From assembly GCA_019241915.1 (NCBI GenBank), contig JAFAWI010000074.1:1-28487 (forward strand): a stretch of 28,487 nucleotides of DNA, written 5' to 3'. Numbering within the stretch: the first letter of the stretch is position 1; every line of letters begins with the position of its first letter. The notes beneath the pieces were generated by a model. It was not told the DNA's origin, searched no databases, and saw only the letters and a program-made list of their open reading frames with translations. Made by a program: the position numbers and the translations under genes. Positions 3,756 through 11,423 of this stretch are shown here, in pieces. This DNA is from Alphaproteobacteria bacterium. Its GTDB lineage: Bacteria > Pseudomonadota > Alphaproteobacteria > ATCC43930 > CGMCC-115725.

Positions 3756-4127
3756 ATGGGCGACGACCATCCCAGCCTCATTCGCCGCGAAATCCACGCA
3801 GCACGGCGGCTCGCACGTCTTTTCGGGCTCGAGCGCGGTGGCCGTGTGCGGCGCTGGCCGCCGGCTGCGGCGCAGCGGCTCGCGGAACGACGTGGCCGGC
3901 TGATCGATGAGCTGATCGAGCTGGAGGCGCGGCGCCGCTCGTTCGAGCCATGGACGCCGACCGAGCTCGATCTGGCGATGGGACGCTTGCGCCGAGAAAT
4001 CGAGCGCAGCGAACAGACCTGCCGCGCGCTGCTGGCGGAACTGGGGGCTGAACTCGCTGGCCGCGGTGAAGCGCCGCCAAGCGGGGTGCGCGGCGACGCC
4101 GCCGGTCGGCTGCTGGGACGCGGCTAA
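3756..4127 (+). CDS. Probable FlgN-like flagellar export chaperone (123 aa, helical)
   Basis: Fills the flgJ-flgK gap and is coupled to flgK by a TAATG overlap; size and helical pattern (AERRGRLIDELIELE) fit FlgN; no diagnostic motif recognised, so the call is positional. Confidence 0.5.
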   Translation: MGDDHPSLIRREIHAARRLARLFGLERGGRVRRWPPAAAQRLAERRGRLIDELIELEARRRSFEPWTPTELDLAMGRLRREIERSEQTCRALLAELGAELAGRGEAPPSGVRGDAAGRLLGRG

Positions 4128-6083: not shown

Positions 6084-7343
6084 ATGCGCATCAGCACCAA
6101 TGAGTTTCTCCTCGGCTCGCTCAACGAGCTGTTGGCGCAACAGCAGAACGTCAACAAGCTCAATCGCGAGATCGCAACCGGCCAGACGCTGCTTAGCCCC
6201 GCCGACGACCCCAGCGCGGCGGGTCAGGTGGTCGGCCTGGCCGACCGCATCGGTCAGTTCGGCTACGAGGCCGCAAATGGCCAGGCGGCATCGCAGACCC
6301 TGCAAAACGGCATCGGCACGTTGCAGCAAGTGACGACGCTGCTGGCGCAGCTGCGGCAAACCGCGGTCACGGTGGCCAATGGCAGCGCCACACCAAGCGA
6401 CCGGCAGGCTGCGGCCGTGAGCGCTCAGACCCTGCTGCAGCAGCTGGTCCAGTTGGCGAACACGCAGGACGGCAACGGCAACTATCTGTTCGCTGGGTCG
6501 CGGTCCAACGCACCGGCTTTCTCAACGCTGCCGAATGGCCAAGTGGTTTTTGATGGTGACGCTTCGGTCAGCCAGGTGCAAATCGCGCCGTCGCTCAGCG
6601 TTCTGTCGACGATCTCGGGTCAAAACATCTTTATGAATGTTCCGGCCGGATCGCAGGGGCTTGCGGTATCGGCCAACGCGGGCAACATCGGGGGTGCCTA
6701 TGCGGTGGCCGACGGCGTGACCAATCTGGCGCAGGTCAGTGCGGCAGGCCGCGCCGGAACGCAATACGACATCACCTTCTCCGGCAACACCTCGGGTCTG
6801 GCCTATACCGTGACCAGCGGCACCGGACCGCCCGGCAGCGCCGGCTACAACGCAACGTCAGGCGTCGTCGCTTCCGGAAGCTATGCCGCGGGCGCCGATC
6901 TCACCTTTGCCGGAATCGACGTCTCGATCCACGGCAATCCAGCCGCCGGCGACAGCTTTGCCGTGCAGCCGGGCGCGACGACGACCGTCTTCCAGAGCGC
7001 ACAAGACCTGATCGCCGCGCTGCAGATGCCGCAGGGGAGCGGCGCGCAGGCGGCCCAGGCGCAACAGGCCTTCCAGAACGTACTGGCGAACCTTAGCGGC
7101 GTGCAGACGAGCATCTTGTCGGGACAAGCCGTGCTGGGTACCAGCCTCTCAGAGATCCGCTCGGCTCAGACGCAAACCTCGGCGTTGAGCGCCAATGCCG
7201 CCGGCACGATGTCCGATCTCCAGTCCGCCAACCTGCCGCAGGTGATCGCGAACTACAGCGAGAGCCTGACCGCACTACAAGCGGCGCAGCTGGCTTTTGC
7301 CAAGGTGCAGAACCTGACGCTGTTCGCGGCTATCGCGCGATGA
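6084..7343 (+). CDS. flgL: Hook-associated protein 3 FlgL
   Basis: MRISTN start, IATGQTLLSPADDPSAA, LANTQDGNGNYLFAG, flagellin-like C-terminus; follows flgK. Confidence 0.95.
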   Translation: MRISTNEFLLGSLNELLAQQQNVNKLNREIATGQTLLSPADDPSAAGQVVGLADRIGQFGYEAANGQAASQTLQNGIGTLQQVTTLLAQLRQTAVTVANGSATPSDRQAAAVSAQTLLQQLVQLANTQDGNGNYLFAGSRSNAPAFSTLPNGQVVFDGDASVSQVQIAPSLSVLSTISGQNIFMNVPAGSQGLAVSANAGNIGGAYAVADGVTNLAQVSAAGRAGTQYDITFSGNTSGLAYTVTSGTGPPGSAGYNATSGVVASGSYAAGADLTFAGIDVSIHGNPAAGDSFAVQPGATTTVFQSAQDLIAALQMPQGSGAQAAQAQQAFQNVLANLSGVQTSILSGQAVLGTSLSEIRSAQTQTSALSANAAGTMSDLQSANLPQVIANYSESLTALQAAQLAFAKVQNLTLFAAIAR

Positions 7344-7398: not shown

Positions 7399-10300
7399 AT
7401 GAACGACATCGCCCGGGCGGCGGACAAAGTGCCTCTGGCGGCCTGTGACGCCGGCGCTCTCGCCGGCTCGACGGCGCTCATTGTCCTCGGCATGCACCGC
7501 AGCGGCACGTCGGCGCTGGCTGGGATGCTGCATCATCTCGGCGTTGCGCTGGGCGAGCGGCTCATGCCGGCCACGCCGGACAATCCCCGCGGGTATTGGG
7601 AGCACAGCGATATCGTCGCGATCAACCATCGGCTGATGGCGACGCTGGGTCACGGCTGGGACGATCTGCGCCCGATGCCGGCCGGTTTCTTGCGCGAGCG
7701 CGCAGCGGCCGAGGCGAAGGACGCGCTCGCGAATGTGTTGCGCCGCGACTTCGCCGGCGCCGCCCTGTGGGCGGTCAAGGACCCTCGGCTATGCCCGCTG
7801 ATGCCGCTGTGGGGTCGTCTGATGGCACAGGAGCGGGTCGGGACGCGCTATCTGCTGGCGATCCGCCATCCGCTTGACGTTCTGGCCTCGCTGCGGACGC
7901 GCGACGGGCTGAGTGCGGAGCGTGCGGCTTTGTTGTGGCTGCGGCATGTGCTCGATGCGGAGCGGGCCACGCGCGGCGCGCGGCGCGTCATCGTCCATTA
8001 CGAAGAGCTCGTCCGCGATGCTGGTTGGCGCGGCGCGGCAACGCGCATCGCCAACGAGCTGGGCATCTCATGGCCGCGATCGCTTGATGCGGCAGCCCCC
8101 GCCATGAATGCGTTTCTGACGCCGGCGCTGCGCCGTCACCGCGCCAGCGACGCCGTCAAAGACGAGCCGCTGCCGCGCTGGCTGCGCGAAGCGTATCGAG
8201 CCTTCCGCGCCGGCGAGCTGCCTCTGAACGAGATCTGCGACGGGCTGAGCGGACAGCTCGCGGCGGCGGGCGACCTCTATCTGCCGATCCTCGAAGAGAC
8301 CGGGCGGGCGCTGGTCGAAGCGGGGCAACGGGAAGCCCGCGCCCAGCACGAGGCGGCGGAGCTGCGCGAGCGGATACGCCGCCTGGCCGACGACAGCGCC
8401 GTGCTGAAGCAGGCAGCGTCCGCGGTATCGCTTGGCGGCGCGGGCCCGCCGCCGCCGCTTTCGGCTGACGAGGCGTTTCCGCGGTGGATGATGGCGCGCG
8501 CCTCGACGGCCGTGGCACGCCAGGAATGGGTCGCCGAGCGAATGGCCTTGTGGCCGTTTGTGCCGGTGAGCGCGCTGGGGATGATCCTGGTGCCGGGCAG
8601 CGAGCCGTTGCTCGACCTGACGCTTCGCGCGCTCGAATCGCAAATCGCCGGCGACTGGCGCCTGCATGTGGTGTGCGAGACGGCGCGGCCGCCGGCGCTC
8701 GCAGCACCGGATCGCATCGTGTGGCACGAGGTTGCCGGGCGCCCGGCAGCCGAGCTTACCCGGCAACTGGCGGCGTCGGGGGCGCACTGGGTCGCGCTGA
8801 TTGACGCTGGCGACCAGTTGGCGCCGCACGCGTTGTTCGCGGTGGGCGACGCGTTCTTCCGGCACCCCGAGTGGCAGGCGCTCTATACCGACGAGGCCCG
8901 CATCGGCCCCGATGGCGGCTTGTCGGGGCCGCACTTCAAGCCCGACCTCAACCTCGAGCTGTTGCGCGGCTTACCCTATGTCGGCGCGCTCCTGGCCGTA
9001 CGCCGCGAAATCTTTGCCGAGCTGGGCGGCTTTGATCCGGCGTGGGACGGCACCGAGGAATACGATTTGGCGCTGCGGCTTGCGGAGAAAGCGGGCGAGG
9101 GCGGCTTCGGGCACGTCGCCGACATCCTTTACCATCGGCTGACAATCTCCGGGCGCTCGCGGCGGCCGGCGGCCGAGATTTGTGCCGACATGCCGAAGAT
9201 CGTCCAGGCGCATCTCGACAGGGTAGGAATCGCGGCGAGCGCCGAGCAGGGCGTACCGGCACACACCTGCCGCGTACGGTATCGGCATGACGGCGCGGAG
9301 CCGCTGGTCTCGATTATTGTGCCGACCAAGAACCAGGTGGCGCTGCTCAAGCGCTGCGTCGAGTCGGTGCTGAGGCTGACCGAATACGAAACTTACGAAG
9401 TCATCGTCGTCGACAACGGCAGCGACGATCCCGACGCCGCAGCTTACCTGCAAGCAATCGAAGACAAGCACGCCGAGATCGGCAGTCGCCTGAGGGTATT
9501 CCGCGACCCCGGCCCGTTCAACTTCGCGGCCCTCAACAACCGCGCCGTGCGGGAGGCCGCGCAGGGCGATTACATCTGCCTGCTGAACAACGACGCGGCG
9601 CCGCTCGATCGAGTTTGGCTCGGCGAGATGATGGCGCTGGCGCGGCGGCCCGATGTCGGCGCGGTCGGCGCCAAACTGACCTACCCAGACGGGCGTATCC
9701 AGCACGCCGGGGTTATCCTCGGGGTCGGCTGGGGCGCCCCGGCCGACCATCCCTATATCGGCGAGCCTGGGACCGCGATCGGTTATTGGGGACGGCTGCT
9801 GGTTGCGCAGGAGCTATCGGCGGTCACGGCCGCCTGTCTGGTGACGCGGCGTTCGGTATGGGATGCGGTGGGCGGGCTCGACGGGGAAAACTTCGCGGTC
9901 GCCTACAATGACGTCGACTATTGCCTGCGGGTGCGCGAGGCGGGCTATCGGGTCGTATGGACTCCGCAGGCCCGGCTGCTGCACGAAGGCAGCGCCAGCC
10001 AGCGTGCGGCAGCCGCAACAGGCAGTGTCGCCGACGGCAATGCGCGGTTTGTCCGCGAGCGCTTGGCGATGTACCGCAAATGGCTGCCGCGCATCGCCTT
10101 CGACCCGGCCTATAACCGCAACCTGTCCTCGCTGGGTCCCGGCTTTGCGGTTGAGATCGAAGGCGCGCCGACATGGGACCCGGAGTTTCGGCCGCGCGAG
10201 CGGGTGCTGGTCTACCCGGCGGACCGCGAGGGCTGCGGCGAGTACCGCATCATCGCGCCGAGCCGGGCGCTGGCAAAGTCGGGCACGGTACATGCTTATG

Positions 10301-11169
10301 AGACGATGCGCCTGCTGACACCGCCGGAAATCGCGCGCATGCAGCCGGACAGTATTGTCTTTCAGCGCCAGCTGGAACCCGGCCAGATCGAGGTCATCGA
10401 GTGGGTAAAGCACACCAGCAAGGCGCTGTGTGTCTTCGAGCTCGATGACCTGATCACCAACTTGCCGCCCAAGAGCGCGCATCGGCCGATGATTGCGGCG
10501 GACATCTCGCAGCGCCTCAAGCGCGCCCTCGCGCTGTGCGACCGCCTGGTGGTCAGCACCGAGGCGATGGCGCGCGCGTACGGCCGGATGTGCGGCGAGG
10601 TCACGGTCGTGCCGAACCGGCTGGAAAGCGCGCGCTGGCTCGGTCTGGCGCCGCGGCGGCGCGACGGGAAGCCGCGGGTCGGGTGGGCCGGGGCGATCGG
10701 CCATAGCGGGGATCTCGCGATCATTGCTTCCGTGGTCGAGGCGACGGCGAAAGAGGTCGAGTGGGTGTTCTTCGGCATGTGTCCGGACGTGCTGCTGCCG
10801 CATGTCGCCGAATTTCATCCGTGGGTGCCCGTGCACGATTACGCCGCCAAGCTCGCCTCGCTCGATCTCGACCTCGCCGTGGCGCCGCTCGAGCGGCACC
10901 CGTTCAACGAAGCGAAAAGCAATCTGCGCCTGCTCGAATATGGCGTGCTCGGTTATCCGGTGGTCTGCACCGACATTCTGCCCTATCAGGGCGCATTGCC
11001 GGTGACGCGCGTGGCAAACCGCCACCGGGACTGGGTCCGCGCGATCCGTGAGGCAATCGCCGACCGCACGGCGGCGCGGGCGGCGGGCGAAACGCTGCGC
11101 GCGGCGGTGGTCGCAGACTGGATGCTTGAGGATCATCTTGCCGAATGGCGGCGGGCTTGGCTGCCTTGA
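7399..11169 (+). CDS. Multidomain enzyme: sulfotransferase-like domain, two GT2 domains and a C-terminal GT-B/GT4-like domain; probable flagellin glycosyltransferase (FgtA/Fgt1-like)
   Basis: LGMHRSGTS..NPRGYWEH..KDPRL..RHPLDVLAS; LYTDE..PHFKPD..EYDLALRL; VSIIVPTKN..VDNGSDD..LLNND..QHAGVILG..AVTAACL..NDVDYCLR; YPADREGCGEYRIIAP..RVGWAG..PFNEAKSNLRLLEYG; located between flgL and fliC. Confidence 0.85.
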   Translation: MNDIARAADKVPLAACDAGALAGSTALIVLGMHRSGTSALAGMLHHLGVALGERLMPATPDNPRGYWEHSDIVAINHRLMATLGHGWDDLRPMPAGFLRERAAAEAKDALANVLRRDFAGAALWAVKDPRLCPLMPLWGRLMAQERVGTRYLLAIRHPLDVLASLRTRDGLSAERAALLWLRHVLDAERATRGARRVIVHYEELVRDAGWRGAATRIANELGISWPRSLDAAAPAMNAFLTPALRRHRASDAVKDEPLPRWLREAYRAFRAGELPLNEICDGLSGQLAAAGDLYLPILEETGRALVEAGQREARAQHEAAELRERIRRLADDSAVLKQAASAVSLGGAGPPPPLSADEAFPRWMMARASTAVARQEWVAERMALWPFVPVSALGMILVPGSEPLLDLTLRALESQIAGDWRLHVVCETARPPALAAPDRIVWHEVAGRPAAELTRQLAASGAHWVALIDAGDQLAPHALFAVGDAFFRHPEWQALYTDEARIGPDGGLSGPHFKPDLNLELLRGLPYVGALLAVRREIFAELGGFDPAWDGTEEYDLALRLAEKAGEGGFGHVADILYHRLTISGRSRRPAAEICADMPKIVQAHLDRVGIAASAEQGVPAHTCRVRYRHDGAEPLVSIIVPTKNQVALLKRCVESVLRLTEYETYEVIVVDNGSDDPDAAAYLQAIEDKHAEIGSRLRVFRDPGPFNFAALNNRAVREAAQGDYICLLNNDAAPLDRVWLGEMMALARRPDVGAVGAKLTYPDGRIQHAGVILGVGWGAPADHPYIGEPGTAIGYWGRLLVAQELSAVTAACLVTRRSVWDAVGGLDGENFAVAYNDVDYCLRVREAGYRVVWTPQARLLHEGSASQRAAAATGSVADGNARFVRERLAMYRKWLPRIAFDPAYNRNLSSLGPGFAVEIEGAPTWDPEFRPRERVLVYPADREGCGEYRIIAPSRALAKSGTVHAYETMRLLTPPEIARMQPDSIVFQRQLEPGQIEVIEWVKHTSKALCVFELDDLITNLPPKSAHRPMIAADISQRLKRALALCDRLVVSTEAMARAYGRMCGEVTVVPNRLESARWLGLAPRRRDGKPRVGWAGAIGHSGDLAIIASVVEATAKEVEWVFFGMCPDVLLPHVAEFHPWVPVHDYAAKLASLDLDLAVAPLERHPFNEAKSNLRLLEYGVLGYPVVCTDILPYQGALPVTRVANRHRDWVRAIREAIADRTAARAAGETLRAAVVADWMLEDHLAEWRRAWLP

Positions 11170-11211
11170 GCCGTTGTCCGCACCCCGACGGTCGCCCGTC
11201 GCCGGCGCGTG

Positions 11212-11227
11212 TTTACCGAAAACTAAC
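11212..11227 (+). promoter_or_regulatory. Degenerate CtrA-like box upstream of fliC
   Basis: TTTA-CCGAAAA-CTAAC versus consensus TTAA-N7-TTAAC (2 mismatches). Confidence 0.25.
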
Positions 11228-11423
11228 CCTGAATTGCCGGAATGCCGCGATTCTCCCGGCAAAAAACCACCCAACCGTTGCAACAAATTATCCGAACGTC
11301 CGTCTCCTTACGGGTGAGCGGTCCGCTTCCGACGCCGTGTCCAATCGGCTCGGCCGCCGGCTGCGTCGTCACTCTCATCCGTGCCGTTCCCGGTTCGGGG
11401 GCCTCGGCAGTAGGAGAACAGAC

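Follow-up and report, generated by a model that had tools for sequence, protein, structure and literature searches.

In this study we analysed a stretch of DNA of 28,487 nt (contig JAFAWI010000074.1 of assembly GCA_019241915.1, Alphaproteobacteria bacterium), which we call the window, and concentrated on one gene of its flagellar cluster, an open reading frame (ORF) for a protein of 1256 residues that lies between flgL and the flagellin gene fliC. Our results point to the product of this gene being an assembly-line enzyme of the cytoplasm, which would attach O-glycans to flagellin and sulfate them with 3'-phosphoadenosine 5'-phosphosulfate (PAPS) as donor, a reading to which we give a probability of about 0.6. 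The flagellar filament of this soil bacterium would, on that reading, probably bear a coat of sulfated sugars. The protein consists of an N-terminal sulfotransferase domain, a long helix, two family 2 glycosyltransferase (GT2) domains and a C-terminal GT-B domain (Table 1). An earlier model-made annotation of the same DNA (the original prediction) had proposed a sulfotransferase-like domain on a flagellin glycosyltransferase and had described the gene as standing alone between flgL and fliC, which the ORF and Pfam annotations confirm, there being no other gene in that interval.

By its Pfam score, modelled fold and motif placement the N-terminal domain is a sulfotransferase, as had been predicted. 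The Pfam family Sulfotransfer_3 (PF13469) matches residues 27-226 over profile positions 2-215 of 216, with 31.5 bits against a cut-off of 27, and the match to the same domain in the whole-genome search reached 37.3 bits. Residues 1-345 were modelled by AlphaFold2 (AF2) with 25 orthologues as input, which gave a mean predicted local distance difference test score (pLDDT) of 87 and a predicted template modelling score (pTM) of 0.80. When this model was compared with the PDB by Foldseek, the top 21 matches (E up to 0.001) were all sulfotransferases with probability 1.00, and included those of CurM (4gbm) and OLS (4gox), the protein tyrosine sulfotransferases TPST1/2 (TPST2 as 3ap3), Stf9, Stf1, Stf0 and a cytosolic sulfotransferase (SULT). 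Against the Swiss-Prot models, sulfotransferases made up 28 of 30 matches, with TPSTs at ranks 1-12 and with the Nod-factor sulfotransferase NoeE, Stf3 and carbohydrate sulfotransferases (CHSTs) among them, the remaining two being uncharacterised. A PDB search with the sequence of the whole protein returned GT2 enzymes only, and a PDB search with a profile extending over the long helix produced helical matches that were all spurious; that profile was replaced by a trimmed and more diverse profile of 36 members of the domain, for which all 24 matches among PDB sequences were sulfotransferases. The domain resembles the solved enzymes (CurM/OLS, 4gbm and 4gox; TPST1/2, 3ap3 and 5wrj; Stf0/Stf1/Stf9, 1tex, 2zq5 and 2z6v) in its fold, in the 5' loop following the first strand and in the placement of an R...S motif, and resembles NoeE of Sinorhizobium fredii NGR234 in its fold; unlike it, the solved Sulfotransfer_3-type enzymes and NoeE, with which it shares only 14-24% identity, are neither fused to glycosyltransferases nor linked to flagella.

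The motifs on which PAPS binding would depend are in place. The original prediction had taken HRSGTS and RHPLDVLAS for PAPS-binding patterns, and their position in the model, the alignment with SULTs and their invariance all agree with it. HRSGTS (residues 33-38) joins the first strand (25-31) to the helix 34-46, R34-S-G-T-S38 fitting the pattern K/R-x-G-T/S-T/S of the 5'-phosphosulfate loop after the first strand, and the stretch R156...S164 spans the junction between strand 148-155 and helix 158-169, where HMMER aligned RHPLDVLAS with RNPKDTAVS and RNPKDVAVS of solved cytosolic sulfotransferases. The segment G31-S38 is invariant in the 25 orthologues and in homologues of 38-40% identity, and the R, G, T and S of the loop are invariant in the 36 diverse family members. 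R156, S164 and E68 are invariant in all three alignments and H69 nearly so, and by analogy with sulfotransferases that use a glutamate base, E68 is a candidate catalytic base. K127-R130 is invariant from 79% down to 38% identity, as are G31-S38, E68, R156 and S164, and the invariant set holds in orthologues with 38-65% identity over the sulfotransferase region and in fusions of 38-40% overall identity. In two distant fusions the sulfotransferase domain retains 46-48% identity, against 31-34% for the two GT2 domains; because it is better kept than these, it appears to be intact and does not look like a decaying domain.

The remainder of the protein can be considered a glycosyltransferase core. 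The helical segment that precedes it had been called a short coiled coil, and a helix is indeed predicted there; it is not short, however, but one long continuous helix and the least conserved segment of the protein (19-55% identity). Two GT2 domains were found as expected. The description of the first as degenerate proved too strong: it is kept across the whole family, is 27-53% identical to the Pseudomonas and beta-proteobacterial cores and has invariant G471, D472, Y496 and D498 (G471-D472; Y496-x-D498), so that divergent is the better word. The second GT2 domain has PDB sequence matches to chondroitin synthase and GalT1 and a weak match to the rhamnosyltransferase model TIGR01556. The GT-B domain, also foreseen, was modelled by AF2 with a GT-B fold (pLDDT 89, pTM 0.88) whose best Foldseek matches are GT4-type (7qsg, GlgM, PglA, SPS, BshA, MshA and PimA), the 50 best fold matches being GT4-type glycosyltransferases and SenB. 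An assignment of this domain as a TagF/CD0244-like phosphotransferase was rejected, there being no Glyphos_transf match in Pfam (E up to 1) and no TagF-like entry among these 50 best fold matches.

Sequence comparison places the core with Pseudomonas ORFs that are, by their position, of the Fgt1/Fgt2/FgtA type of flagellin glycosyltransferases. Residues 880-1256 match 102 of 151 Pseudomonas genomes, mostly with 43-53% identity and in ORFs of mostly ~1170-1260 aa. In the loci that were fetched, several of these ORFs are placed between flgL and fliC or immediately adjoin fliC. The order GT2-GT2-GT-B is colinear in the examined Pseudomonas, beta-proteobacterial and metagenome-assembled genome (MAG) loci, and the Pseudomonas ORFs in the Fgt1/Fgt2 slot, ~1170-1270 aa long, share with our protein 27-34% identity in the first GT2 domain, 35-55% in the second and 36-53% in GT-B. 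The glycosylation island of Pseudomonas syringae pathovars, with Fgt1 and Fgt2, occupies the same slot between flgL and fliC (PMC3402453, PMC3927599); both genes are found upstream of fliC, and glycosylation of the flagellin depends on fgt1 (PMC3402453) and, in P. aeruginosa PAO1, on PA1091, which has this position too (PMC11833859). In contrast to our protein, the sampled Pseudomonas ORFs begin with another GT2, an RgpF-like domain or a region without assignment and none has a sulfotransferase, and the published P. syringae glycan (modified viosamine-Rha-Rha, Rha being rhamnose) is not sulfated (PMC3927599). In PA1091 (FgtA), a flagellin glycosyltransferase of the GT2 family is joined to a phosphotransferase like CD0244/FtaD, a published precedent for the fusion of such a glycosyltransferase with a glycan-modifying activity (PMC11833859; bioRxiv 10.64898/2026.02.12.704994); both systems have, beside fliC, one polypeptide that unites a flagellin glycosyltransferase with an enzyme adding an anionic group to a sugar; the PAO1 decoration, however, is phospho-N,N-dimethylthreonine with a proposed CDP-linked (cytidine diphosphate) donor, whereas the module found here is of the PAPS type. 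The earlier statement that FgtA and Fgt1 have a GT2 plus GT-B layout holds to the extent that the core is shared with Pseudomonas ORFs between flgL and fliC, but the second activity of FgtA is given as that of a CD0244-like phosphotransferase (PMC11833859). Genes like PA1088-PA1090 were not found in the window.

The position of the sulfotransferase in front of this core is a variable one. The N-terminal slot of other Fgt cores holds S-adenosylmethionine (SAM) methyltransferases, FkbM, RgpF, GT2, GT4, GT9, GT61 and TPR domains, the SAM methyltransferases occurring with RgpF or GT9 domains in Thiomonas delicata, Tibeticola sediminis and related MAGs, and one gammaproteobacterial ORF carries GT2, methyltransferase and sulfotransferase in series before the core. 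Because the same slot elsewhere holds methyltransferases and extra glycosyltransferases, the sulfotransferase would be standing in the place of a glycan-elongating or glycan-tailoring module. Full-length homologues of the protein number more than 120 at 55-76% identity, and those with a name are from Stellaceae MAGs; the nearest relatives at the DNA level stand at 71-79% in protein sequence, too far apart for a reliable dS of the sulfotransferase domain. The idea that the fusion is restricted to Stellaceae was nevertheless rejected, since gammaproteobacterial MAGs have it too, as do two metagenome contigs without an assignment. The proteins with a sulfotransferase fall, in a tree built from the core, into two clades with good support, one of Stellaceae and the other of one gammaproteobacterial MAG with the two unassigned contigs, and the fusion may have arisen once or twice. 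One of the distant flagellar islands with a sulfotransferase-Fgt fusion also contains a gene of 2831 residues that runs off the locus (L002:12127-16701) and carries GT2, Sulfotransfer_3 and TPR domains, so that this island holds two sulfotransferase domains.

A search for co-occurrence with fliC, which the original prediction had proposed, yielded a consistent association with flagella. In the window's order, 81 genomes were compared: of the 17 with a flagellin match, 16 also have a match that extends into the GT-B tail, which none of the other 64 has. These counts describe the sample and are not a test statistic, since related genomes are not independent. The gene adjoins fliC in these genomes wherever the two share a contig; in 3 of the 16 it is interrupted by the end of a contig or by a change of frame, and G161 and G158 have its N-terminal piece on a different contig. 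We also examined 80 genome loci with the motifs of the family, and those with the GT-B tail on long enough contigs carry flagellar genes, while matches with only the sulfotransferase and GT2 domains do not, with the exception of one Alicyclobacillus locus. The architecture stands next to flgL and/or fliC at distant flagellar loci as well (L002, L003, L015 and L016-L018). The GT-B domain is the only module confined to flagellar loci.

Outside this architecture the sulfotransferase subfamily is widespread. A search with the domain alone retrieved 21,181 clusters (E up to 0.001), in which it either stands by itself or belongs to one of many kinds of fusion. Many of these fusions combine it with GT2 domains away from flagellar loci, and some homologues are labelled 'O-antigen biosynthesis protein' by their sources. 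One complete genome from the window's order (G168; L107:11240-14972, minus strand) has cysD and cysNC followed by a stand-alone sulfotransferase and then by GT-D-like and GT2+GT1 genes; this sulfotransferase is 40% identical to residues 27-237 with all motifs kept, and no flagellin match was found in that genome. The subfamily thus appears, on these gene neighbourhoods, to work with glycans and PAPS. The cultured Firmicute Alicyclobacillus mengziensis S30H14 (NZ_CP071182.1; L067:3648-11713) has the order fliC, fliD, GT2-TPR, GT4, a 445-aa sulfotransferase of the same subfamily (38% identity) and fliS, an association with flagella that is independent of the one above, belongs to another phylum and involves other glycosyltransferases. 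Our own genome (G000) contains, elsewhere, a second and far stronger Sulfotransfer_3 match (165.8 bits) in a 503-aa open frame (contig C345:413-967).

The original prediction had also advised looking for cysDNC, and the genes point to a CysD/CysNC route to PAPS in the genome, with a cysNC that is frameshifted in the assembly. The single adenosine 5'-phosphosulfate (APS)-kinase domain of the genome sits on the cysN-cysC gene. Most of the 20 relatives searched have one open cysNC frame of ~630-700 aa, and contigs of two other metagenome runs, one of them nearly identical, have an extra G behind L001:1129 that restores the frame (QFAAHIVWMK). We considered whether cysNC might be a true pseudogene, which would undercut the supply of PAPS, and this is weakened by the fused gene of the relatives and by the extra G of the two other runs; the frameshift probably stems from a misassembly where depth is low. 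The genome also has candidate CysQ-family phosphatases and RmlC.

Putting these results together, we can propose how the enzyme would act. The highest 19-residue hydropathy mean of the protein is 1.65, and because it falls within stretches holding predicted or inferred beta-strands, we read the protein as soluble and cytoplasmic, with no convincing membrane segment. Glycosylation of flagellin occurs in the cytoplasm before export, which would suit a soluble enzyme able to draw on nucleotide sugars and PAPS. The Fgt-type core would place a short O-linked glycan on Ser/Thr of the flagellin before it is exported; the GT-B domain would direct the enzyme to flagellin or prime its Ser/Thr, being probably the flagellin-directed step because it is found only at flagellar loci, and the GT2 domains would extend the glycan. 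Rhamnose as the sugar is a guess that comes from the weak rhamnosyltransferase match and from RmlC. The N-terminal domain, as an active PAPS-dependent sulfotransferase, would then O-sulfate one sugar of the glycan, with PAPS coming from the CysD/CysNC route. As the original prediction had it, the flagellin is rich in Ser/Thr and nearly uncharged: its 491 residues include 46 Ser and 59 Thr (105, or 21%), 4 Tyr and 20 charged residues (1 Arg, 3 Lys, 8 Asp and 8 Glu). Because only 20 residues are charged against 105 Ser+Thr, sulfate could supply most of the surface charge of the filament. That flagellin is the acceptor, that the sulfate is on the glycan, which sugars are used, which domain primes and in what order the steps follow is what we infer from the combination of domains and neighbours, and the earlier proposal that one polypeptide builds and caps an anionic glycan is, likewise, a sequence-derived one.

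Several observations weigh against this proposal. The organism is known only as a MAG, which is 87% complete and in 727 contigs. The cysN-cysC gene is split by a one-base frameshift in the assembly (L001:1100-1150, corresponding to contig C446 of G000, ~10006-10056), and the probable source run yielded no contig over this spot, where the depth is ~3-4. TM-scores to the solved sulfotransferases are modest (0.37-0.53), and the nearest solved folds include protein tyrosine sulfotransferases, which leaves a protein among the possible acceptors. One relative of the same family (G231; flagellin at C6:429821-431335) is the sole flagellin-bearing genome without a match to the GT-B tail, and may have another glycosylation system or none. 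Finally, the core is equated with the named enzymes Fgt1, Fgt2 and FgtA only by position, together with ORF size.

Three other explanations have to be weighed against that of a glycan-sulfating flagellin glycosyltransferase. The fold could serve something other than the transfer of sulfate from PAPS, the domain using another 3'-phosphorylated nucleotide as donor of a different small group or acting as a non-catalytic nucleotide-binding or scaffolding domain. The assignment is drawn only from fold and motifs, the Pfam score lies just 4.5 bits over the cut-off, and no solved structure matches the domain at the sequence level below E 0.002, all of which would suit such a role; the invariance of both phosphate-binding motifs and of the candidate base over a wide divergence argues, however, against a dead scaffold, the PAPS-making genes cysD-cysNC are immediately followed by a homologue, and the named fold and profile matches are all bona fide PAPS enzymes, so we consider this explanation unlikely. 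Alternatively, the domain could sulfate the flagellin itself at Tyr, Ser or Thr, making the enzyme a protein O-glycosyltransferase and protein sulfotransferase in one. The presence of TPST2 (3ap3, TM up to 0.53) among the best fold matches and of TPSTs at the head of the Swiss-Prot ranking is in keeping with this, and an enzyme built to dock on flagellin would have the protein at hand. The few Tyr residues of the flagellin speak against it, as do the fusion of the same subfamily to GT2 pairs at non-flagellar loci and its place in the gene row of cysDNC and glycosyltransferases, the presence of the carbohydrate sulfotransferases NoeE, CHST1/3/4/7 and Stf0 among the matches to the fold as well, and the fact that the slot is otherwise filled by sugar-tailoring modules; we judge sulfation of the polypeptide to be distinctly improbable.

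The acceptor might, on the other hand, not be on the filament at all, the enzyme building or tailoring a sulfated surface polysaccharide (lipopolysaccharide, LPS, or exopolysaccharide, EPS) from a flagellar position that is incidental. The homologues combining sulfotransferase and GT2 domains at non-flagellar loci lack the GT-B tail, and their occurrence, with the O-antigen label that some of them bear, is what would recommend this view. It has to face the distribution of the GT-B-tailed architecture over flagellin-bearing and other genomes and its adjacency to fliC on shared contigs, the recurrence of the architecture between flgL and fliC in distant taxa, the lack of a membrane segment in the protein and of an export or polymerase gene near its ORF, and the loss of flagellin glycosylation in fgt1 and PA1091 mutants (PMC3402453, PMC11833859), the Pseudomonas counterparts being equated with these genes by position only. 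We therefore give very little credit to a polysaccharide-directed enzyme, and retain flagellin O-glycosylation with sulfation of the glycan as the preferred reading.

On balance we lean, by a small degree, towards the view that bacterial flagellar filaments can carry sulfated O-glycans and that the sulfotransferase is one of the swappable N-terminal cassettes of the Fgt core (for methyl groups, extra sugars or sulfate), having been recruited in at least three settings, namely in Stellaceae, in a gammaproteobacterial clade and, as a separate gene, in Alicyclobacillus. Sulfated sugars on surface glycoproteins have a precedent in Halobacterium salinarum, whose glycoproteins bear sulfated N-glycans made with two sulfotransferases (PMC11980604); the two cases are alike in that a motility filament or surface glycoprotein would carry sulfated sugars from dedicated sulfotransferases, and differ in the domain of life, in the N-linked glycan and in its separate N-glycosylation pathway. 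In the literature, with most subscription journals outside our reach, we found no bacterial flagellin sulfotransferase or sulfated bacterial filament glycan, and archaeal cases only. What is new here is that the sulfotransferase has an Fgt-type partner, that the N-terminal slot follows a modular rule, that within one order the gene strictly co-occurs with flagellin, and that there is a link to a cysDNC operon. Much work has been devoted to how flagellin glycosylation affects motility, surface charge, phage adsorption and immune recognition. A sulfated bacterial filament, if true, would be a strongly anionic addition to the known modifications, and could explain how an almost charge-free flagellin rich in Ser/Thr gains surface charge. 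It would also provide a rule for reading genomes, by which the tailoring chemistry of the flagellar glycan is named by whichever domain fills the N-terminal slot of an Fgt-type enzyme, and the cultured A. mengziensis, with its sulfotransferase between fliD and fliS, makes the prediction testable by mass spectrometry.

Table 1. Positions in the window of the 1256-aa ORF, its domains and motifs, and the two genes that flank it.
Feature	Position	Strand	Basis
flgL, hook-filament junction protein	6084..7343	+	Pfam Flagellin_N, 63.9 bits
1256-aa four-domain ORF (sulfotransferase, helix, GT2, GT2, GT-B)	7399..11169	+	open frame throughout
Sulfotransferase domain, residues ~24-270	7468..8208	+	Pfam PF13469, AF2 model, Foldseek, profile search
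5'-phosphosulfate-binding loop H33-R-S-G-T-S38	7495..7512	+	motif position and invariance
E68-H69, candidate catalytic base	7600..7605	+	conservation
3'-phosphate-binding motif R156-H-P-L-D-V-L-A-S164	7864..7890	+	HMMER profile alignment
Long linker helix, residues 274-344	8218..8430	+	AF2 model, pLDDT 65-91
First GT2-like domain, residues ~385-625, divergent	8551..9273	+	sub-threshold Pfam GT2 matches
Second GT2 domain, residues ~632-880, canonical	9292..10038	+	Pfam Glycos_transf_2 E 8.5e-21; Glyco_tranf_2_3 E 1.7e-18
C-terminal GT-B domain, residues ~930-1256	10186..11166	+	AF2 model, Foldseek
fliC, presumed substrate, 491 aa	11424..12899	+	Pfam Flagellin_N, Flagellin_C, Flagellin_IN

The flagellar cluster lies on the plus strand in the order flgG, flgI, flgJ, a small ORF, flgK, flgL, the 1256-aa ORF, fliC, fliD, fliS and an ORF with a FlgM domain, the small ORF between flgJ and flgK (3756-4127, 123 aa) being without a Pfam match. 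The gap between flgL and the 1256-aa ORF measures 55 nt, with no terminator-like site found in it, and a scan for promoters and terminators around the ORF gave nothing above chance; co-transcription with flgKL is possible. The start of the protein (MND...) is common to its orthologues. Besides Ser and Thr, the flagellin is rich in Asn and Gln. The longest ORF over fliC begins at 11145; it overlaps the end of the glycosyltransferase gene and has 93 codons ahead of the N-terminus that is conserved in flagellin (MLSGVINTN...). The extra leader (11145-11423) has no similarity to flagellin and is probably not translated.

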